Assembly: GCA_964599115.1 (NCBI GenBank)
Contig: CAZREZ010000002.1
Span: 1-39,662, forward strand
DNA: 39,662 nt
Direction of reading: 5' to 3'
Source of the DNA: an uncultured Bacteroidales bacterium
GTDB lineage: Bacteria > Bacteroidota > Bacteroidia > Bacteroidales > JADFUO01
Numbering within the stretch: position 1 is the stretch's first letter; every line of letters begins with the position of its first letter. Made by a program: the position numbers and the translations under genes. Of the stretch, positions 8,583 to 27,361 are shown one piece after another. The notes under the pieces were generated by a model, which saw only the letters and a program-made list of their open reading frames with translations, was not told the DNA's origin and did no database searches.

Positions 8583-9833
8583 ATGGATAGAATTATTAAA
8601 AAAAAGAAATGGACTACAAGGAAAATTTTAACTATTATTGGAATTACAGCATTTGTGTTTTTTCTTATTTTCCTTTTATTTTTAAGAGATAAATCAAGCA
8701 AATTATATGTAGATAAAAATCAAATTTCAATTGCTACAGTGCTTGAAGATAAGTTCCAGGAATTTATACCGGTTGATGGAGTTGTATACCCTAAAAACAC
8801 AATTTACATTGATGCAATACAGGGTGGAGTGGTTGAAGCTGTATATGTTGAAGATGGTGCTATACTTGAAAAAGGTGATACTATTTTAAAATTACTCAAT
8901 ACTGCAATGGAATTGAATTTTATGGAACAGGAAACAAGGATGCTTGCAGAAATTAATAATTTACAAAACACACTTCTTGCCCTAGAACAAAACAAATATT
9001 TACGCCAAAAAGAAATTGTTCAGTTGGATTACTTGATTGATGGTACTGAAATAGATTTTACAAGGAAAGTACAACTGTTTCATGATAGTGTTATTTCTGT
9101 CAAAGAATTTGAGGATGCTCAAAGAGAATTTGAATTTACATTAAAACAGTTAAATATTTCATTAAAACTACAAAAGCTTGATTCTATTTCAGGTGCTGCA
9201 CAATCAAATAATATAAAAAATTCGTTGGCAAGAATGAATGATAATTTGATTTTATTAAGAAAAAATATAGAAAATGCTTATGTTAAAGCTCCTGCTAATG
9301 GAAAGCTGTCTTCTTTTAGTGCCGAGATCGGCGAAACAAAATCAACAGGCGAACATCTCGGTCAGATAGATTTACCGGATGGATTCAAATTACGTGTAAA
9401 TATTGATGAGAGGTATATTTCAAGAGTATTTAAAGGCCAGGAAGCTGAATTTGATTTTACCGGACATAACTATCAGTTGTACATCGATAAAATTTATACA
9501 GATGTTACGGCTGGTTCGTTTCAGGTTGATATGTTCTTTGATTCAATAGCCCCTGCCAGTGTTAAGCGTGGACAGACGATACAGCTTAGATTAAAATTCA
9601 GTGGTGAAACCGATGCAATTATTGTAAAAAGAGGTGGCTTTTTCCAGGAAACAGGAGGAAACTGGATTTATATTATTGATCCCACTGAAAGTTTTGCTAC
9701 TAAAAGAAAGATAAGAATAAATAGGCAAAACACTAATTTTTACGAGGTGTTAGAAGGTTTGCAGCCAGGAGAGAAAGTTATAGTATCTTCTTATGATTCG
9801 TTTGGTGATAAGGATAAATTGATATTTAAATAA
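8583..9833 (+). CDS. HlyD/MacA-family periplasmic adaptor (membrane fusion protein)
   Basis: It has an N-terminal TM anchor (ILTIIGITAFVFFLIFLLFL), a lipoyl-like motif (GGVVEAVYVEDGAILEKGDTILKL), a long coiled-coil region and a C-terminal beta-barrel region. It sits 5 nt upstream of the first permease gene. Confidence 0.85.
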   Translation: MDRIIKKKKWTTRKILTIIGITAFVFFLIFLLFLRDKSSKLYVDKNQISIATVLEDKFQEFIPVDGVVYPKNTIYIDAIQGGVVEAVYVEDGAILEKGDTILKLLNTAMELNFMEQETRMLAEINNLQNTLLALEQNKYLRQKEIVQLDYLIDGTEIDFTRKVQLFHDSVISVKEFEDAQREFEFTLKQLNISLKLQKLDSISGAAQSNNIKNSLARMNDNLILLRKNIENAYVKAPANGKLSSFSAEIGETKSTGEHLGQIDLPDGFKLRVNIDERYISRVFKGQEAEFDFTGHNYQLYIDKIYTDVTAGSFQVDMFFDSIAPASVKRGQTIQLRLKFSGETDAIIVKRGGFFQETGGNWIYIIDPTESFATKRKIRINRQNTNFYEVLEGLQPGEKVIVSSYDSFGDKDKLIFK

Positions 9834-9838
9834 TAATT

Positions 9839-12262
9839 ATGTTAAGAAACTATTTTAAAGTTGCTTTAAGGAATTTGTTAAGATATAAATTCTTTTCATT
9901 AATTAATATAATTGGATTGGCAATAGGTATGGCAGCTTCAATTTTGATAGCTTTATGGGTGATTGATGAATTGAGTTATGATGAATATAATGAAAAGGCA
10001 GATCGAATATATAGGGTTGAACGTGACATATTTTATAATAATGAGAGATTTTTGGTTCCGGTTACCGGTGCTATTTACGGAAGTACTATTAAATCTGATC
10101 TCCCTGAGTTTGAGGACATGGTACGTTTATATCCTAATGAGCTTTCAATTGAGGACAATAGGGGTGTAGATCACCGCGAGAGAGTATTCTTTGCCGATGC
10201 AAGTATTTTTAATGTATTTACTTTTCAATTCTTACGTGGAGATCCGGGCAAATCTTTAGAGGAGCCATTTACAGTTGTTCTAACATCAAAAGGAGCTGAA
10301 AAATATTTTGGAAATGAAGATCCAATAAACAAACATTTACTTATAGAATGGGGAGATGAAAAAAAATCTTATCTCGTTACAGGTATTATTGAAAATGTCC
10401 CTGATAACAGTCATTTTCATTTTGATGTTTTAGCTTCGTTTAATACGCTTGAGACATATATGCCGGACAATTTAAAAAGCTGGTTAAATAATAATCTTTA
10501 TACTTATGTTTTATTAAAGGATGGAATTGAAAAAGAACAGGCTGAGGCCAAACTTCAGATATTAGTGGAACAATATATTTTACCTGCCTACAGCCAATTT
10601 TTTCAGGATGATGAGCCTGAGGCTTCTATGGAATTATATCTTTTACCCATCAAAGATATTCATCTGACTGATAGAATGTGGAGTATTGAATCTGGTGGAA
10701 GTAAAACATCCGTTTATATTTTTTCCATTATTGCAGTTTTAATATTGGTGATTGCATGTTTTAATTTTATGAATTTATCAACTGCTTTGGCAAGAAGAAG
10801 ATCTTTGGAAGTTGGAGTTAGAAAAACCATGGGAGCAAATAAAAAGCAGTTAGTTTCCCAATTCTTAACCGAATCATTTATTCTGGCTGTAATCTCGTTT
10901 GTTTTGGCTCTTTTAATTATCGAGATTATTTTACCAAATTATAATACTTTTGCCAATAAGTCATTATCATTACTTACCCTTGGAAAGACAGAAAATTTAC
11001 TTTTACTTTTAATAATTATTATTGGTACCGGTATAATAGCCGGATTATATCCTGCAGTTTATTTGTCATCATTCAAACCGATAGCTGTTTTAAAAGGGAA
11101 AATGAATGGGAAGACCAGTAATTTCAACTTTAGACAAATTTTAGTAATATTACAATTCGGAATATCCATAAGCTTGATTATAGGCACATTAACAGCTTAC
11201 CTGCAAATTAATTATTTTCAAAACAAATCATTGGGTTTTGAAAAGGAAAACATGCTAATAATTCCCGTTGAAAGTAATTATGTGCAAGAGCATTATCAAG
11301 CATTCCGTGATGAATTAAAACAACAACCAATAATTCAAAACGTAGCATCTTCATTCGCTATTCCAACCCAATCGAATTATTGGGATACCGTATTTGAAAC
11401 AGAATTGTTACCGGATGAAACTTTTTTAAGTCGATATTATTCGATAGATTATGATTATTTCAAAACTTATGGGATAGAAATAATTGCAGGGCGAAACTTT
11501 TCAAAAGAATATCCAAATGATACATTGGGTAGATGGATTCTTAATGAGGCAGCTATAAAAAAAATGGGAATCAAGGATCCTGAAAAAGCTGTTGGGGCCA
11601 CATATACTCATTTTGGTAATGAATCGGAAACCAAAGGGAAAATCATAGGTGTTGTGAAAGATTATCATTATCAGGGGCTTGATAAAAAAATTGAACCAAT
11701 GTCTCATTTTTTATCAAGAAATCAATTCGGGTATATAAGTGTGAAATATGCAGAAGGAAAAGAAAAAGGAATAGTTGAACTTGTTGAAAAAAAATGGAAG
11801 AAACAATTTCCGGGTGTGCAATTCTCAAGCATATTTTTAACAGAACGTTATAATAATCTTTATCAGAATGAACAGAAAATGAAAAAAACCCTGATTGGAT
11901 TTATAATTTTGGCAATTTTTATTGCCTGTTTGGGATTATTTGGCTTAGCTGCGTTTATTGCTCAACAAAAAACAAAAGAAATTGGAATCCGTAAAGTACA
12001 TGGTGCATCTATAAATTCGATCATTCAAATGTTAAATAAAGTATTTATTAAATGGGTGCTGATAGCAAATGTTATTGCCTGGCCTGTAGCGTACTATTTT
12101 CTTGATGAATGGTTAGCCGGTTTTTATTACAGGATCAGCTTACCTGTCTGGGTTTTTATTATTTCCGGATTAATAGGCTTACTAATTGCTATAATGACTG
12201 TGAGCTATCAAGCATATAAAGCTGCCAGGTCAAATCCGCTTAATGCATTGAAATATGAATAA
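9839..12262 (+). CDS. ABC transporter permease, MacB type with two FtsX modules (paralog 1, 807 aa)
   Basis: The N-terminus MLRNYFKVALRNLLRYKFFSLINIIGLAIGMAA is followed by a periplasmic domain. There are two FtsX-type TM bundles, with signature loops RRRSLEVGVRKTMGA and QKTKEIGIRKVHGA. The C-terminus reads SNPLNALKYE. Confidence 0.9.
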   Translation: MLRNYFKVALRNLLRYKFFSLINIIGLAIGMAASILIALWVIDELSYDEYNEKADRIYRVERDIFYNNERFLVPVTGAIYGSTIKSDLPEFEDMVRLYPNELSIEDNRGVDHRERVFFADASIFNVFTFQFLRGDPGKSLEEPFTVVLTSKGAEKYFGNEDPINKHLLIEWGDEKKSYLVTGIIENVPDNSHFHFDVLASFNTLETYMPDNLKSWLNNNLYTYVLLKDGIEKEQAEAKLQILVEQYILPAYSQFFQDDEPEASMELYLLPIKDIHLTDRMWSIESGGSKTSVYIFSIIAVLILVIACFNFMNLSTALARRRSLEVGVRKTMGANKKQLVSQFLTESFILAVISFVLALLIIEIILPNYNTFANKSLSLLTLGKTENLLLLLIIIIGTGIIAGLYPAVYLSSFKPIAVLKGKMNGKTSNFNFRQILVILQFGISISLIIGTLTAYLQINYFQNKSLGFEKENMLIIPVESNYVQEHYQAFRDELKQQPIIQNVASSFAIPTQSNYWDTVFETELLPDETFLSRYYSIDYDYFKTYGIEIIAGRNFSKEYPNDTLGRWILNEAAIKKMGIKDPEKAVGATYTHFGNESETKGKIIGVVKDYHYQGLDKKIEPMSHFLSRNQFGYISVKYAEGKEKGIVELVEKKWKKQFPGVQFSSIFLTERYNNLYQNEQKMKKTLIGFIILAIFIACLGLFGLAAFIAQQKTKEIGIRKVHGASINSIIQMLNKVFIKWVLIANVIAWPVAYYFLDEWLAGFYYRISLPVWVFIISGLIGLLIAIMTVSYQAYKAARSNPLNALKYE

Positions 12263-12346: not shown

Positions 12347-14752
12347 ATGTTTAAAAATTATTTAAAAATCAGTATCAGGAATCTTATAAGAGAAAAGGTA
12401 TATACTCTTATAATTATAATTGGCTTAACTATTAGTATAGTTTCATTTTTACTTATTGTGCTTTATATTCAAAACGAGTTAAGTTATGATAAGCATATTC
12501 CGGATGCTGACCGTTTATTCAGGTGTGTAGAATTACAACATGCAGAAGGTGTTGGTGACCAGCATGTAGCTGTTACAATGGGTCCTTTGGCAGATGCTTT
12601 GGTTAATGATTTCCCCGAGGTTGAAAAAGCAGTTAGATTAATGGCTTGGGGTAGTTTACCCATTGAATATAATGGTAAACAATTTAACCAGGATTTCGTT
12701 GTTTTTACAGACCCTGAAATTTTTGATCTTTTTGATGTACAACTCATCAGGGGTGATACTTCAAGTGCATTGGATGAGCTTAAATCAATAATTGTTTCTG
12801 AAAAGGTTGCAAAAAAGTTTTTTAACTCTGTTGATGAAGCTGTAGGCAAGATTGTTACATTTTATAATAAAGAAGGATTTTTAGTTACCGGTGTAATGAA
12901 AGATCAACCCGAGAATGCACATTTCAAAATGGAAGTTCTTATTCCTTTTAAATGTATTGAATCACAATTCTCATGGCTTAAGGGCTGGGGAAGTAATTCA
13001 TTAGATACTTATATTCGTCTTACAAAAGGGTCAGATTATCATGATTTAGAAGAAAAATTCGAAGAATTTCTGTTAAAATATATTGATATTCCTGAAGAAA
13101 ACAGACATCGTATGTTCCAGCTTTATTTACAGCCGGTTCTTGATATACATCTAAAATCAGATAAAATGAAATTCCAGGTTATGAATTATAATCAGGGTAG
13201 CATTACATTGATATATGTATTTTCTGTCGTTGCCATATTAATAATTATAATAGCCTGTATTAATTTTATAAATATTGCAATAAGCCGTTCGGTTAAGAGA
13301 AGTAAAGAAGTTGGAATACGAAAAGTATTAGGTGCTAACCGTCGAAATTTAATATATCAATTTCTTGGAGAATCATTTATCATTACTTTTTTTTCAATAC
13401 TATTTGCACTCGTATTAGTTGAATTTCTTTTGCCATCGTTTAACCAAATATTGGGAACCAGCCTTGAAATAGACTTTATTAATAACTGGATTTTTAATTT
13501 TGGTTTATTGGCAATATTATTGATTGTTAGTTTTTTCTCAGGAGCTTACCCTGCATTTTATCTTTCACGATTTCATCCAATAAAAATATTAAAAAATACT
13601 TCATCGCTGCGAAATACAAAGTCGGGGATATTAAGCAAGATTTTAGTTGTGTTTCAGTTTGTGATTTCTATAAGCTTGATTTTTTGCGTTATGATTATTT
13701 ACACCCAGTTCAATTATGTCTTAAATAAAGATCTTGGATATAATTATAATGATGTGGTATCCATTCCATTATTTGATAATAATACGCCTGAAAAAATTGA
13801 ACAAATAAAGAACGAGTTAAAGCAAAATCCAAATATTATTAATATTTCCGTAGCTTCCAGCGTTAGCGGAGCGAGTGGAACCCAAGCTACAATAGAAGTT
13901 GATGATACAGCACAAACAAGGATTACTTCACGTATATGTAGTATAGATTATAATTTCTTTCAAATGATGGAAATACCGGTTATTAAGGGTCGTAATTTTA
14001 GTAAAGAATATGCCTTGGATGAAAATGAGGCAATAATTCTAAATGAATCAGCAGTTCATTATCTTGGATGGGATGACCCTATTGGAAAAGTTTTTAAACC
14101 CATATTATTAGATACAGTTGCAAAAAGAAGAGTAATTGGAGTGATACAAGATTATCATTATTATTCTTTACATTCAAAAATTGAACCGGCTGTTTATATT
14201 ATTGATAATGAACGAAACAGAACACTATGTATTAAATTAAATAAATCGGCAATTAAAGAAACTGTTGAATTTATTGAATCGAAGTGGAATGAATTGTTTC
14301 CCGGCGTTCCATTTGAAATGGTGTTTGCAAATGAACAATTAAAAGAATACTATGAAGATGAAAAGAATACAATGAAGTTATTTACATTCTTCACTTTGCT
14401 GTCAATTATAATTTCATGTTTGGGTCTTTACGGTCTTATATCCTATATTGTTGAACAGCGAACAAAGGAAATTGGAATTCGTAAGGTTTTAGGAAGCAAA
14501 ACATTACAAATTGTAAATCTTCTAATTAAAAATTTTATTAAACTTATATTAATAGCAGGTATTATTGCATCTCCAATAGCCTGGTATTTTATGGATAAAG
14601 CATTACAAAATTTTGCTTACAGGATAAATATTTCATGGTATTATTTTGTTATTGCTATAGTTGTAGCATTGATTATAGCTATACTAACGATTTTATACCA
14701 CGCTCTTAAAACAGCTAATAAAAATCCTGTTGATGCATTGAAATATGAATAA
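12347..14752 (+). CDS. ABC transporter permease, MacB type with two FtsX modules (paralog 2, 801 aa)
   Basis: It has the same architecture as paralog 1: N-terminus MFKNYLKISIRNLIREK, FtsX loops KRSKEVGIRKVLGA and QRTKEIGIRKVLGS, and C-terminus NPVDALKYE. Confidence 0.9.
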   Translation: MFKNYLKISIRNLIREKVYTLIIIIGLTISIVSFLLIVLYIQNELSYDKHIPDADRLFRCVELQHAEGVGDQHVAVTMGPLADALVNDFPEVEKAVRLMAWGSLPIEYNGKQFNQDFVVFTDPEIFDLFDVQLIRGDTSSALDELKSIIVSEKVAKKFFNSVDEAVGKIVTFYNKEGFLVTGVMKDQPENAHFKMEVLIPFKCIESQFSWLKGWGSNSLDTYIRLTKGSDYHDLEEKFEEFLLKYIDIPEENRHRMFQLYLQPVLDIHLKSDKMKFQVMNYNQGSITLIYVFSVVAILIIIIACINFINIAISRSVKRSKEVGIRKVLGANRRNLIYQFLGESFIITFFSILFALVLVEFLLPSFNQILGTSLEIDFINNWIFNFGLLAILLIVSFFSGAYPAFYLSRFHPIKILKNTSSLRNTKSGILSKILVVFQFVISISLIFCVMIIYTQFNYVLNKDLGYNYNDVVSIPLFDNNTPEKIEQIKNELKQNPNIINISVASSVSGASGTQATIEVDDTAQTRITSRICSIDYNFFQMMEIPVIKGRNFSKEYALDENEAIILNESAVHYLGWDDPIGKVFKPILLDTVAKRRVIGVIQDYHYYSLHSKIEPAVYIIDNERNRTLCIKLNKSAIKETVEFIESKWNELFPGVPFEMVFANEQLKEYYEDEKNTMKLFTFFTLLSIIISCLGLYGLISYIVEQRTKEIGIRKVLGSKTLQIVNLLIKNFIKLILIAGIIASPIAWYFMDKALQNFAYRINISWYYFVIAIVVALIIAILTILYHALKTANKNPVDALKYE

Positions 14753-14776
14753 ATTGATTATTTAAATATAAAAATT

Positions 14777-15112
14777 ATGAGAGAAGTAGTAATTTTAATT
14801 CCTGATGTTGACATTGAACAAAACATTGAAATTGATGTCAGGATCAATGGTAGAAAAAGAACCATTCAATACAGAGTTGAATTATTGAACTGGGAAGGAA
14901 ATGATGTTCCGCCCAAAGATAAAGTTAACGTTTTAAAACATTGGATTGCCGATTATGACAAGCAATGGGAACTTGTGGAAATTGGCGCACCTGGTGATGA
15001 AAACATTCCGCTAATGTTCAGAAAGAAGATACAACCATTAACTGAGAAAGGTTTTAATCAGGGATTCAATTTGCTTATTTTGAGAAATAATTCGATGATG
15101 GATGGAAAATAG
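14777..15112 (+). CDS. Hypothetical cytoplasmic protein (111 aa) embedded between permease paralogs
   Basis: The ORF is on the same strand as its neighbours, 24 nt after the upstream stop and 29 nt before the next ATG. It has no signal peptide or TM segment, and I recognise no domain. It ends in TAG. Confidence 0.55.
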   Translation: MREVVILIPDVDIEQNIEIDVRINGRKRTIQYRVELLNWEGNDVPPKDKVNVLKHWIADYDKQWELVEIGAPGDENIPLMFRKKIQPLTEKGFNQGFNLLILRNNSMMDGK

Positions 15113-15141: not shown

Positions 15142-17550
15142 ATGTTTAAAAATTATTTTAAAATAGCAATAAGGAATTTGGTAAAACGCAAGTTTTATTC
15201 CCTGATAAATATTAGCGGTCTTGCTATTGGTCTTGCCAGCTTTATAATTATTATGTTGTATATTATTGATGAGTTAAGCTATGACCGATATCATAAGAAT
15301 GCCGAAAATATCTACAGGCTTGTTAATGTTTATGATTTTAGCGGAGTTGGTGAAAATTCTGCAAGTAGCCCTTTTCCCGTTGCATTTACTATGAAAGACG
15401 AATATCCCGGAATGATTAAAAATGTTGTCCGGGTTTTTAATTTTCAAACCCCAAGAATGTTAATTGAGATTGGTGATAACAGATACAATGAAAGGAGGTT
15501 CTTTTTTGCAGATTCTACTTTCTTTAACATTTTTGATCACGAATTTATTAATGGCAACCCAAAAACCGTTTTGAATGAATCTTACTCAGTTGTTTTGACC
15601 GAGTCTGCAGCAAAAAAATATTTTGGTGATGATGATCCTATAAATAAAACAATAAAATTTGAGAAACAGATTGATTTAAAAGTTACAGGTATAATAAAAG
15701 ACGTTCCTGCTCAATCACATTTTAATTTTGATTTTATTGCTTCAATGTCATCGGTAAGAAAAATATATGGCGGAAAGCTCCCTAAAACCTGGGTTTGGAA
15801 TCCATGCTGGACATATTTACTTCTTGAAGATGGAGCAGCTCCTGTACTGGAAAAAAAGTTTCCCGATTTTATTAATAAATTTTTTAATGATGCAGAAAAA
15901 GAGAATATTTCTCTTTATCTCCAACCATTGACGGATATACACTTAAAATCAAGACTTGATTATGAATTAGAACCCAATAATAATATTTCTTATATCTATA
16001 TTTTATCGGCAATTGCAGCATTTTTACTGATAATTGCAAGCATTAATTTTATGAACCTTGCAACAGCAACATCTGCAGCCAGAGCAAAAGAAATAGGAAT
16101 TAAAAAAGTTGTTGGGAGTTACCGTTCACAGTTAATTTTTCAGTTTATCAGCGAATCAATTATTATAAGTTTTATTTCCTTAATAATTGCTCTGATTTTA
16201 GTTGAACTGTTATTACCTGTTTTTAATACATTTGCAAATAAAGAGATTGTTCTTAGTATTTTGCTTCAACCTAAATATTTATTGGCATTAATTGTATTAG
16301 TATTATTTACAGGAGTATTTTCGGGTATATACCCGGCATTTTATTTATCTGCATTTAAGCCGATATCCGTATTAAAAGGAAGTATAAAAAAAGAAAATAA
16401 AAGCACACTGCCAAGAAAAATACTGGTTGTTTTACAATTTGTTATTTCTATAACTTTAATTATTGGCACATTAACGGTTTTTAGCCAATTAAAATTTTTA
16501 CAAAATGCTGATTTGGGATTCAACAAAGAAGAAATTATAATTATTCCGGTTAATCACACACCAATTGCCCGGTCATACAAGAGTTTTAAAAACGAATTAC
16601 TCTTAAATAATGATATAATCAGCATTACGGCTGTGGATGATATATTTGGTGTTGCTCATAATACCCATGAATTCAGTCCAGAAGGATTTCCGCAGGATAA
16701 GTTGCAATTTTATCCTGCATTGGTTGTCAGGTATGATTTTGTTAAAACATTTGATATAAAAATACTTGCGGGAAGAGATTATAATGAAGATAATAAAACC
16801 GACCCTGAAAAAGGTATGCTTATTAATGAAGCTATGGTCAAGCATCTCGGTTGGGGAAGTAATGAACAAGCTCTTGGCAAAAAGTTTAAATCATTATATG
16901 GGGAGGAAAGAGTAATTGGTGTTACAAATAATTTTAATACCACTTCATTGTATGAACAAGCAGGTCCGTTTGTTCTGAATATTAAAGAAAATCAAGGTGA
17001 AGTTATGTGGTTTTTAAAATTTATGGCAATCCGAATAACTCCGGATAACAATAAAAAAACAATAGACTTTATAGAAAATAAATGGAAAGAGTTTGCTCCA
17101 AACCGTCCTTTTGAATATTCTTTTTTAGATCAGGAACTCAATAAACTTTATAAGGATGAGAATAATTTCGGAAAACTTTCATTAATTTTCTCTTTAATGA
17201 TAATTTTTATTGCAAGTCTTGGCTTGTTTGGTTTGACCTCATTTATGGCAGAACAACGAACAAAGGAAATTGGCATAAGGAAAATTTTGGGTGCTAAAGT
17301 AAACGATATAATCACATTGTTATCCAAAGAATTTTTTAAATTAATTGTGATTGCAATACTGATTGCATGGCCAATTGCATTTTTATTAATTGATGATTGG
17401 CTCAGCCATTTTGCATACCGGACTGCCATTAATTGGTTTGTGTTTATTCTTGCAGGTTTGTTTGCATTAATTATTGCATTATTGATTACTGCTTACAAAG
17501 CTTATGTTACATCACAGTCTAATCCTGTTGATACTTTAAAATATGAATAA
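15142..17550 (+). CDS. ABC transporter permease, MacB type with two FtsX modules (paralog 3, 802 aa)
   Basis: N-terminus MFKNYFKIAIRNLVKRK, FtsX loops ARAKEIGIKKVVGS and QRTKEIGIRKILGA, and C-terminus NPVDTLKYE. Confidence 0.9.
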   Translation: MFKNYFKIAIRNLVKRKFYSLINISGLAIGLASFIIIMLYIIDELSYDRYHKNAENIYRLVNVYDFSGVGENSASSPFPVAFTMKDEYPGMIKNVVRVFNFQTPRMLIEIGDNRYNERRFFFADSTFFNIFDHEFINGNPKTVLNESYSVVLTESAAKKYFGDDDPINKTIKFEKQIDLKVTGIIKDVPAQSHFNFDFIASMSSVRKIYGGKLPKTWVWNPCWTYLLLEDGAAPVLEKKFPDFINKFFNDAEKENISLYLQPLTDIHLKSRLDYELEPNNNISYIYILSAIAAFLLIIASINFMNLATATSAARAKEIGIKKVVGSYRSQLIFQFISESIIISFISLIIALILVELLLPVFNTFANKEIVLSILLQPKYLLALIVLVLFTGVFSGIYPAFYLSAFKPISVLKGSIKKENKSTLPRKILVVLQFVISITLIIGTLTVFSQLKFLQNADLGFNKEEIIIIPVNHTPIARSYKSFKNELLLNNDIISITAVDDIFGVAHNTHEFSPEGFPQDKLQFYPALVVRYDFVKTFDIKILAGRDYNEDNKTDPEKGMLINEAMVKHLGWGSNEQALGKKFKSLYGEERVIGVTNNFNTTSLYEQAGPFVLNIKENQGEVMWFLKFMAIRITPDNNKKTIDFIENKWKEFAPNRPFEYSFLDQELNKLYKDENNFGKLSLIFSLMIIFIASLGLFGLTSFMAEQRTKEIGIRKILGAKVNDIITLLSKEFFKLIVIAILIAWPIAFLLIDDWLSHFAYRTAINWFVFILAGLFALIIALLITAYKAYVTSQSNPVDTLKYE

Positions 17551-23148: not shown

Positions 23149-24333
23149 CTAATACAAAAAATCATTATAAGGATATTTCTTAATATGAATCTTCTTCACT
23201 TCTTCGTAAAGTATTTTTCTCATTTCCTTGTAATTTTGTTTTTCTATAGCTGAAATAAACAGACAAGGTGTATTAACTTTAGCCATCCACGAATTTTTCA
23301 GGTCTTCAAGGCAGATGTTTTCTTTTGTTATTGGCAAGAGGTCGTCTTCTTCTTTCTCAATAAAAGTGTATATATCAATTTTATTAAAGACTGTGATTAT
23401 TGGTTTATCAATTACTTTAATGTCGGCGAGGGTTTGATTTACAATGTTAATTTGTTCTTCAAAATCGTGGTGAGAAATATCAACTACATGAATAAGGATA
23501 TCAGCTTCTCTTACTTCATCCAGTGTTGATTTGAATGATTCTACAATCCAATGCGGGAGTTTACGTATAAAACCGACTGTGTCGGATATTAGGAAAGGCA
23601 GATTATTAATTACAACTTTCCGTACGGTTGTATCCAGGGTGGCAAAAAGTTTATTTTCAGCAAAAATATTTGATTTACTTAGAAGGTTCATCAGTGTTGA
23701 TTTACCTACATTTGTATAACCCACTAAAGCAACCCGCACTAAACTTTCCCTGTTTTTTCTCTGTGTTGTTTTTTGTTTATCAATATGAGCTAATTTTTTT
23801 TTGAGCAGGGAAATTTTATTACGAATAATTCGCCGGTCGGTTTCAATTTCTGTTTCCCCCGGACCTCTTAACCCGATACCACCCTTTTGGCGTTCAAGGT
23901 GGGTCCACATCCTTGTCAGCCTGGGCAGAAGATATTCATATTGCGCCAGTTCAACCTGGGTTTTTGCATTAGCTGTCATTGCACGGCTCGCGAATATATC
24001 AAGTATTAAATTTGTACGGTCAAGTATTTTGCAGTTTAAAGTTCTTTCAAGATTACGAATTTGTGAAGGATTTAGTTCATCATCAAAAACAGCAATGTCA
24101 ATATTGGCGGTTTCAACATATTGTTTTATTTCATCTAATTTTCCGGAGCCTACGAATGTTTTTGAGTTTGGAATATCCAGTGTCTGGACAAAGCGTTTTA
24201 CAGGTATTCCCCCTGCTGTGTCAATCAAAAATTCAAGTTCATCTAAATATTCGTTGATTTTTTTCTTATCCTGTTGCTTTGTTATTAATCCAACTAGTAT
24301 TGCTTTTTCTTTTTTAGGGGAAGTATCTATCAT
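23149..24333 (-). CDS. hflX: GTPase HflX
   Basis: The HflX N-domain is present (AILVGL...EYLDELEFLIDTAGG), together with G motifs GYTNVGKST, DTVGF and NKID. The gene ends in TAG. Confidence 0.92.
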   Translation of the reverse strand: MIDTSPKKEKAILVGLITKQQDKKKINEYLDELEFLIDTAGGIPVKRFVQTLDIPNSKTFVGSGKLDEIKQYVETANIDIAVFDDELNPSQIRNLERTLNCKILDRTNLILDIFASRAMTANAKTQVELAQYEYLLPRLTRMWTHLERQKGGIGLRGPGETEIETDRRIIRNKISLLKKKLAHIDKQKTTQRKNRESLVRVALVGYTNVGKSTLMNLLSKSNIFAENKLFATLDTTVRKVVINNLPFLISDTVGFIRKLPHWIVESFKSTLDEVREADILIHVVDISHHDFEEQINIVNQTLADIKVIDKPIITVFNKIDIYTFIEKEEDDLLPITKENICLEDLKNSWMAKVNTPCLFISAIEKQNYKEMRKILYEEVKKIHIKKYPYNDFLY

Positions 24334-24350
24334 CTTTAAGCTAGTTCCAT

Positions 24351-24722
24351 TTAGTACCGCTTCTTTCTATGTGATCTGTCGGTTTTTGACATAAAGTAAA
24401 TTGAAACAATTATCAGTAAAAAGTAATTAACTTGCTCAAATGACAATCCTGTTTTAAAAGCGATATCAAGAATTTTATAAAAACTACCTATAAAAACAAT
24501 GAAAAAACCTAAATTATAAAATCTTGATTTTTTCAGGAATATAATTGCTAAACTCAAGCCAATAAAAAAAATTATTAATAATATTTTTACTATCCAGTTC
24601 CAAAAAGCTTGTTCTAAGTTAATGTCAATATAATTATTATAAAAGAACGGAAAGATAAAAAGTATAATGGCTATTCTTAAAAACCAGTTAACAATTATTG
24701 ATAATAATTCTTTTGAATCCAT
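24351..24722 (-). CDS. Hypothetical small membrane protein (123 aa, about 4 TM segments)
   Basis: Hydrophobic segments are evident (IVNWFLRIAIILFIFPFF, ILLIIFFIGLSLAIIFL, LGFFIVFIGSFY, LLIIVSIYFM). It starts 5 nt downstream of the trpS stop. Confidence 0.6.
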   Translation of the reverse strand: MDSKELLSIIVNWFLRIAIILFIFPFFYNNYIDINLEQAFWNWIVKILLIIFFIGLSLAIIFLKKSRFYNLGFFIVFIGSFYKILDIAFKTGLSFEQVNYFLLIIVSIYFMSKTDRSHRKKRY

Positions 24723-24727
24723 TTTAT

Positions 24728-25723
24728 TTAGAATTTTTTAAAACCAATTATTTCTCTTACTTCTTTAATAGTTTTGGAAGCACTTTCGCGGGCTTTATCA
24801 GCACCTTGTTTTACAACTTTTCTTAAGTAATCGTTATTTGTAGATAATTCGGTAATCTTATCACGAAGAGGTGCTGTGAAGTTAATTATATCTTCGGCTA
24901 ATTGTTTTTTTAAATAACCATAACGAATTTCACATTTATTATAAAGGTCATTAAAGTGAGTTACTGTATCTGGTGTTGAAACAACTTTCAGTAATGTAAA
25001 GAGGTTTTCAATAGGTTCTGATTTATTCTGGTTTATTTCCGTTGGCCCGCTATCAGTAACAGCCTTCTAAACTTTTTTACGAATTACTTCAGGCTTGTCT
25101 GCTAAAAAAATTGCATTTCCTTCGCCTTCTGATTTTCCCATTTTTCCTCTACCGTCCAAACCGGGAATTTTAACAAGGGCTTCACCGAAATTATATGCTG
25201 TTGGAATAGGAAAATATTCGGTTTTGTATATACGGTTGAATCGTCTGGTGAAAGTTCGTATCATTTCAAGGTTTTGTTCCTGGTCTTTTCCTACAGGGAC
25301 TTTTGCAGCTTTGTGGATAATAACATCTGCAGCCATCAATGTTGGATATGTTAGAAGTCCGGCATTAATATTTTCAGGTTGTTTCCTTACTTTTTCCTTA
25401 AAAGAAGTACATCTTTCAAGTTCGCCAAGATATGCATTCATATTAAGCAAAAGATAAAGTTCGCTTACTTCGGGCAAGTCACTTTGAATATAAATTGTTG
25501 CTTTTTCAGGGTTCAATCCTGCAGCTAAATATTCGACTAACACCTGCTTAACACTCTCATGAAGATTATCCAGAGTAGGATGTGTTGTTAATGAATGATA
25601 ATCTGCAATAAAGAAATAACAATTGTTTTCTTCTTGCATTTTGATAAAATTTTTTATTGCACCGAAGTAATTTCCCAAATGTAAATTACCTGTTGGTCTT
25701 ATTCCGCTTACTACTATTTCCAT
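24728..25723 (-). CDS. trpS: Tryptophan--tRNA ligase reading frame (332 codons including the terminal stop) interrupted by an in-frame TAG at codon 219 (25067..25069)
   Basis: A HIGH-type motif (PTGNLHLGNY) and a KMSKS-type motif (KMGKSEG) are present. The track ORF stops at ...PEVIRKKV followed by TAG. The same frame continues without any stop or shift for 112 more codons (KAVTDSGPTEINQNK...KTIKEVREIIGFKKF, then TAA at 24728..24730). This continuation is the expected anticodon-binding C-terminal domain (compare the KK-I/V-x-K/R-A-V-T-D-S region of bacterial TrpRS). Confidence 0.85.
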
Positions 25724-25810
25724 GATTGCAAAAATATAAAATATTAGTTATATCTCAATATTTATGAGAATATTAGATTTATAAAATAGAATATTATTCA
25801 ATGGACTACA

Positions 25811-27361
25811 TCATATTTTTATCTCATCATTATTTTTATCAAAAAAATGACATTCAAGGAAGTGATAAGAAGGCATTGAGCGTATCTTAATCCATTTTTT
25901 AAATTTAAAAAACCATTTTATCTGGATTGAAAATAAACCTTTGGTAAGGTAGGCATATAAATACGGATGCAGCGACAGAGTAAGTTGAGGTTCATTTTGG
26001 TCGTGGAGCAGATATTTAATATTTTTTTCAATTTCGTCGGTAAAAATTATGCTTGGTTTTATTTTACCTGAACCATCACAAACCGGACATTTTTCAAGAA
26101 TTTCAATATTCATTTCCGGGCGGACTCTTTGGCGTGTTATTTGTACAAGCCCAAATTTACTTGGAGGCAAAACAGTATGTTTGGCATGGTCTTTTGCCAT
26201 TTCATCTTTAATTTTCTGAAAGAGTGCTTTGCGATTTTTTGCTTCATGCATATCAATAAAATCAACAACTATAATACCGCCCATATCACGCAACCGAAGT
26301 TGTCGGGCTATTTCTATGGCTGCTTCAAGGTTAACTTCCAGAGCGTTAGTTTCCTGGCTGTTTTCTTTGTTAATTTTGTGTCCGCTGTTAACGTCAATCA
26401 CATGCATGGCTTCGGTATGTTCAATAACCAAATAAATACCGCTTTTTATGGTTACGGTTTTACCGAATGAACTTTTTATTTGCTTATCAATACCGTAAAA
26501 TTCAAAAATTGGTTTTTTGCCTTTGTATAATTTGACTATATCAATTTTTTGAGGTGCAAACGTTCCAATGTAGCTTTTAATATCTTCGTAAAGAACAGGA
26601 TTATCAACGTAAATATTATTAAAAGATTCGTTAAGAAGATCCCTGAGTAAAGTTGTTGTAAGGTCAAGTTCGCTGAAAATTTTTTGAAGCGCTTTTGCTG
26701 AAGCAAGTTTCTTGGTCAAATTATTCCATTTTTCTATCAGGTCTTTCATATCTGTATCCAAATCAGCAACACGTATGTTTTCAGCAACCGTACGAATAAT
26801 TACTCCGAAATTGTTAGGCTTGATACTTTGAATTAGTCTTTTTAAACGACTTCTTTCCTCAATACTTTTGATTTTTTGTGAGATAGAAATTCTGTTAGAA
26901 AACGGAACGAGTACAAGAAATCTTCCTGCAAAAGATAATTCTGAGGAGATTCTAGGTCCTTTTGTTGAAATTGGTTCCTTGGCTATTTGGACTAAAATTT
27001 GCTGATTAGTGTTCAGAACCTGGGAAATTTTCCCGGTTTTCTCAATATTACTTTCAAGTTTGAATTTTTCAAGTGAAAATTGTCCGGCTCCTGATGATTG
27101 TATAATTTTGGTGAATTTGTCTGAAGATTTTATCTGTGGGCCAAGGTCAAAATAATGTAAAAATGCATCTTTTTTATAACCAATATTTACAAAAGCAGCG
27201 TTAAGCCCTGGTATGATTTTTTTTACTCTTCCCAGATAAACATCACCTACAGAATAGTTATTATTATTTTTCTCTTTGTGTAATTCAACAAGGAATTTAT
27301 CCTCTAACAGAGCTATATCAATTTCAGTAGAACTTGAATTTATTATTAATTCCTTATCCAC
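25811..27361 (-). CDS. rng: Ribonuclease E/G family protein (RNase G)
   Basis: It has an S1 domain (VGDVYLGRVKKIIPGLNAAFVNIG), catalytic-core motifs HVIDVNSG and GGIIVVDFIDM, and a Zn-link-like motif CPVCDGSG. Confidence 0.9.
   Translation of the reverse strand: MDKELIINSSSTEIDIALLEDKFLVELHKEKNNNNYSVGDVYLGRVKKIIPGLNAAFVNIGYKKDAFLHYFDLGPQIKSSDKFTKIIQSSGAGQFSLEKFKLESNIEKTGKISQVLNTNQQILVQIAKEPISTKGPRISSELSFAGRFLVLVPFSNRISISQKIKSIEERSRLKRLIQSIKPNNFGVIIRTVAENIRVADLDTDMKDLIEKWNNLTKKLASAKALQKIFSELDLTTTLLRDLLNESFNNIYVDNPVLYEDIKSYIGTFAPQKIDIVKLYKGKKPIFEFYGIDKQIKSSFGKTVTIKSGIYLVIEHTEAMHVIDVNSGHKINKENSQETNALEVNLEAAIEIARQLRLRDMGGIIVVDFIDMHEAKNRKALFQKIKDEMAKDHAKHTVLPPSKFGLVQITRQRVRPEMNIEILEKCPVCDGSGKIKPSIIFTDEIEKNIKYLLHDQNEPQLTLSLHPYLYAYLTKGLFSIQIKWFFKFKKWIKIRSMPSYHFLECHFFDKNNDEIKI

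Follow-up and report, generated by a model that had tools for sequence, protein, structure and literature searches.

Does the tryptophanyl-tRNA synthetase (TrpRS) gene of this bacterium carry a nonsense codon, or does the stop belong to one assembly of its genome and not to the organism? The window (the whole stretch of DNA analysed, a contig of 39,662 nucleotides from the metagenome-assembled genome, or MAG, of an uncultured Bacteroidales bacterium) holds on its minus strand a trpS gene that translates as 218 residues, a stop, a further 112 residues and a terminal TAA. The TrpRS gene trpS is essential. A first reading made from the sequence alone had placed an in-frame TAG at codon 219 of this gene and left four options: an error of assembly or base calling, a nonsense allele of very recent origin, a second trpS elsewhere in the genome, or site-specific read-through or suppression. 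Every detail of that description that was checked holds, the position of the TAG being confirmed by sequence and translation, and the parts of the gene are these:

24728..25723, minus strand: trpS (tryptophan--tRNA ligase), 331 codons plus a terminal TAA, with TAG at codon 219 in this assembly
25070..25723, minus strand: N-terminal 218 codons, the catalytic Rossmann-fold part, through the KMGKS loop
25067..25069, minus strand: the in-frame TAG, codon 219; CTA on the plus strand, where public contigs have CAA, that is, TTG (Leu) on the coding strand
24731..25066, minus strand: C-terminal 112 codons, open, in frame and lacking any start codon

On the minus strand the site reads ...CGT AAA AAA GTT TAG AAG GCT GTT ACT..., with the TAG at 25069..25067, and its plus-strand context is ...CTTCTAAAC.... 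A gene caller obtains only the 218-aa N-terminal product from the window contig, as an ORF listed at 25067..25723 on the minus strand. The profiles nevertheless see one complete enzyme: TIGR00233, the NCBIfam equivalog for trpS, reaches 291.3 bits (cut-off 176.75), its positions 4-328 of 328 matching residues 3-328 in an alignment that runs across the stop (entered as X), and Pfam PF00579 scores 204.9 bits over residues 3-282, also crossing the stop. The 112 open codons are thus the C-terminal part of TrpRS, as had been proposed from the letters, and the stop does fall inside a conserved segment, RKKV-x-[KR]AVTD in an alignment of 29 relatives. Further upstream lie TGNLHLGN and KMGKS, which we take to stand at the HIGH and KMSKS signature positions. 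Among the 112 post-stop codons there is no ATG, GTG or TTG, so this part cannot be a separately started gene; by arithmetic from base composition, the chance of a 112-codon open stretch is roughly 1e-4 at 32% G+C.

The same strain can be read at this codon in other public data. Part of the interval 24300..25900 is contained in 24 public runs, the best of which contains half of the sampled words, and the four best runs (X1-X4) were compared with that interval, all as Logan contigs; such contigs drop rare variants, and the comparison was made at contig level. Three of the four runs span the codon with one contig each: X1 at 24934-25427 (494 bases, depth 4.5), X2 at 24908-25343 (436 bases, depth 2.7) and X3 at 25047-25353 (307 bases, depth 3.8). 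Each differs from the window at a single base, 25068 T>A, and an A for the T at this plus-strand position gives TTG (Leu) on the coding strand in place of TAG. The contigs of X4 do not reach the site. Exact-pattern scans of metagenome contigs around the codon, with its variable bases left open, gave no match, which carries no weight in either direction because the set scanned may lack records of this genome or of a very near one. Pieces of at least 99% identity from the four runs cover, by our count, about 1,333 distinct window bases, and 25068 is the only difference in them. X1, X2 and X3 are three samples under three study codes, all described as 'salt lake metagenome' and dated 2017-2018.

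A homologue search adds a protein, P0001, a full-length 331-aa TrpRS on a 14,770-base contig of another assembly (JGI/IMG and ENA), which carries Leu219 (...RKKVLKAVTD...) and agrees with the read-through translation of the window gene at each of the 330 remaining positions. X1-X3 may share one campaign, and the P0001 contig may derive from one of them, in which case these supports are not fully independent. An exact look-up of the truncated 218-aa product finds one contig on record, the window's own 39,662-base one; the two other members of its cluster are fragments from relatives, one with Met219 and the other diverging before residue 219. The reading frame of the complete enzyme is broken at codon 219 in the window and unbroken in three runs and in P0001. 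The TAG is private to the window's assembly, and the same strain has TTG elsewhere. A sense codon in the reads had been named in advance as the mark of an artefact, and TTG is what the contigs of three runs and P0001 hold, at contig level only.

Codon 219 is a sense codon in the relatives as well. The sequence-only reading had advised aligning orthologues to learn which codon sits there, and among 109 relatives it is Met in 105 (ATG), Lys in three (AAA) and Ala in one (GCT), with a stop in none. The first 29 relatives aligned account for 26 ATG and the three AAA; the further 80 Bacteroidales and Bacteroidota loci account for 79 ATG and the GCT, and none of these 80 trpS loci has an in-frame stop anywhere. 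A trpS match was found in 40 of 40 related genomes searched, with a stop inside the match in none of the 40; this search itself puts the four same-genus genes at 95-96% identity. Four genomes of the same genus have an uninterrupted trpS at 94-96% amino-acid and 94.2-95.1% nucleotide identity to the window gene, and at the level of the order amino-acid identity is 67-74%. We counted 25 changes private to the window lineage, 15 before the stop (11 synonymous, 4 non-synonymous), 9 after it (8 synonymous, 1 non-synonymous) and one that is the stop codon itself. The ratio of eight synonymous changes to one non-synonymous after the stop indicates that the downstream part is as constrained as the upstream part and gives no sign of decay; neither a second stop nor a frameshift is present downstream of the codon-219 TAG.

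Two other residues of the window gene are unusual among these relatives. Tyr270 (24914-24916, minus strand) aligns with Asp in 105 of 108 relatives and Glu in the other three, and Leu51 (25571-25573, minus strand) with Pro in 108 of 109. Both are present in the independently assembled P0001, and codon 270 is covered by the contigs of X1, X2 and X3 without any difference, which marks these as real substitutions. X3 also contains a 119-base contig, at depth 20.7, which aligns with the 5' end of the gene (25578-25672) with 6 differences, which suggests that a more abundant related Bacteroidales strain is present in that sample.

We consider it probable that the TAG is a consensus or base-call error, or else an erroneous assembly path in thin coverage. 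The organism's working trpS would then be intact, with TTG (Leu) at codon 219, and the discrepancy would amount to one base, T to A on the coding strand and A to T at plus-strand 25068; thin coverage may have led the assembler along a false k-mer path. From the ATG of most relatives through TTG to TAG, each step changes one base. The MAG comprises 3,537,207 bases in 640 contigs (96.85% complete, 1.04% contamination, 32.3% G+C), its nearest named relatives being uncultured Bacteroidales MAGs, and the number of contigs together with contig depths of 2.7-4.5 in the public runs describes a thinly covered genome of low abundance. Single-base consensus errors in thinly covered MAGs yield 'internal stop' pseudogene calls. 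The present case is like these in being a substitution seen in one assembly, in an otherwise conserved essential gene, in a MAG of 640 contigs with depths of 2.7-4.5; it is unlike them in that two other in-frame stops of the same MAG are genuine, which leaves the trpS stop an isolated discrepancy. Our literature search returned no paper on MAG assembly errors with premature stops. Most likely, then, the stop is no real biological feature, or at most a rare dead-end variant, and of the two origins that remain within this statement, an error is the most likely one, rather than a real minority allele.

The minority allele is the alternative that survives best. It says that the source sample does contain a rare nonsense allele with this TAG, assembled instead of the majority TTG and carried by a dead-end mutant or by DNA from non-growing cells, and we regard it as unlikely, if still worth weighing. 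Both it and an error fit the data, the two of the four original options that stand. A single base separates the TAG from the TTG of the strain; minority variants are, moreover, invisible in contigs. Against this, a loss-of-function allele of an essential gene present in one copy would be expected at a frequency far too low to prevail in a consensus, TTG alone appears in three runs and one other assembly, and a single contig accounts for every record of the truncated product. The quality of the assembly also enters here, and is best judged from the other interrupted genes of the MAG.

A screen for same-frame ORF pairs with at least 80 codons on each side of the separating stop gave 199 pairs. 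In 34 of them the 25 codons that follow the stop contain no start codon, and trpS ranks at the top of these 34 by codon-usage score. From the other 33 pairs, nine were inspected from the codon-usage ranking, and five were chosen by eye, fetched and scanned. A Pfam domain crosses the stop in four of the five scanned (the fifth, L035, has no Pfam match):

L031:1-2403, contig C126: MacB_PCD/FtsX permease, in-frame TAA inside the Pfam domain
L032:1-1137, contig C502: GlcNAc 2-epimerase-like, in-frame TAG inside the Pfam domain
L033:1-882, contig C456: NAD-dependent epimerase, TAA just past the YGISKLS segment, inside the Pfam domain
L034:1-2004, contig C130: glycosyltransferase-methyltransferase fusion, in-frame TAA inside the Pfam domain

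By exact look-up, L031 and L034 each have their truncated product on two contigs, in NCBI plus JGI/IMG and ENA. Because these truncations recur in independent assemblies, we take both loci for genuine pseudogenes of accessory genes; for L034, intact versions of 657-658 aa exist in related strains. The truncated product of L033 is recorded from the MAG only, and the homologue search gave no identical intact counterpart, its best match being 81% identical. The four same-genus genomes hold only paralogues, to L033 at 22-33% identity and to L031 at no more than about 40% over long matches. The idea that the MAG is generally error-ridden was dropped, since two of the three other interrupted genes looked up are reproduced elsewhere. 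That the in-frame stops of L031 and L034 are genuine lends something to the rare allele, the assembly being not obviously sloppy. Independent assemblies share those two stops but not the one in trpS, and it is on this ground that we call the trpS TAG an isolated discrepancy.

Far less probable is that the TAG is decoded. Programmed read-through, suppression or recoding would give a full-length TrpRS from the gene as assembled, and the frame after the stop is indeed intact and conserved; we nonetheless hold this to be very improbable, given that other data for the strain show TTG at this codon and that no relative of the 109 has a stop there. In this genome TAG functions as an ordinary terminator, ending 265 of 1,639 stop-to-stop ORFs of at least 250 codons (TAA 1,116, TGA 258), and in the window it terminates minus-strand genes at 23149, 27625 and 28140 and the plus-strand ORF 14753..15112, the counter-argument already raised in the sequence-only reading and upheld here. 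Nor is TAG in excess among the stops that separate the 199 same-frame pairs (TAA 125, TGA 42, TAG 32). Release factor RF1 is encoded by an unbroken gene (TIGR00019, 485.8 bits; cut-off 423.25), and the best score for PylS in the MAG is 19.8 bits against a cut-off of 178.15. ARAGORN finds no tRNA with a CUA anticodon among 26 tRNAs and one tmRNA, which is weak evidence because the tRNA set is incomplete and a suppressor tRNA could be missed. Recoding of TAG is known from pyrrolysine systems and, as TAG to Gln, from some phages of Bacteroidota. The present case resembles such systems in that a TAG lies in frame within a conserved gene that is otherwise intact; it differs from them in that the genome encodes RF1 and commonly ends genes with TAG, that neither a tRNA-CUA nor PylS turned up, and that other data for the same strain lack the TAG. 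Among the titles and abstract openings that our literature search covered, there is no report of a natural nonsense codon in a bacterial trpS.

A related idea is that a viable TAG subpopulation of this salt-lake Bacteroidales strain carries the nonsense codon in its only trpS and survives through UAG suppression. We find this hardly credible; the means would be, for example, a chromosomal or phage-borne tRNA-CUA absent from the 26 recovered tRNAs. As trpS is single-copy and essential, a fixed nonsense allele would need suppression, and no trace of suppression was found. Should such a viable allele exist, it would show an essential gene of Bacteroidales being maintained by UAG suppression in nature.

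That the window gene is a decaying paralogue, with a second intact trpS elsewhere in the genome, we judge to be next to negligible. A MAG that is 96.85% complete in 640 contigs could lack a gene that the organism has. A protein search of the whole MAG nevertheless finds one trpS, in keeping with the single copy that the sequence-only reading gave as normal for TrpRS, and the search with PF00579 returns two genes, the window trpS and a tyrS (TIGR00234, 405.8 bits). The same-genus relatives have no second full-length copy, the extra match in one of them (G003) being a 122-residue piece at a contig end, and the part after the stop shows no decay. Scarcely any weight attaches, finally, to the idea that this TrpRS is naturally produced as two polypeptides, for although both parts are open and coding-like, the downstream part has no start codon and no relative is split.

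Set beside bacterial TrpRS in general (TIGR00233, PF00579, class I W/Y synthetases), the window gene is a full-length match above the curated cut-off, single-copy beside one tyrS and with uninterrupted orthologues, and it differs only by the codon-219 TAG, in this assembly alone. In practice it is best treated as an intact trpS that encodes Leu219. The case calls for caution: when a single-copy essential gene in a MAG contains an in-frame stop, the picture mimics recoding or gene decay, and here the stop vanishes when the same strain is checked in other public data. The same kind of check set the artefact-like trpS stop apart from two genuine pseudogenes of the same MAG.

Elsewhere in the window, three tandem plus-strand ORFs of about 800 codons each lie at 9830-12262, 12347-14752 and 15142-17550, with a 119-codon ORF between the second and the third. 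Judged by size alone, these tandem ORFs are like the FtsX/MacB-type permease paralogues found elsewhere in the genus.
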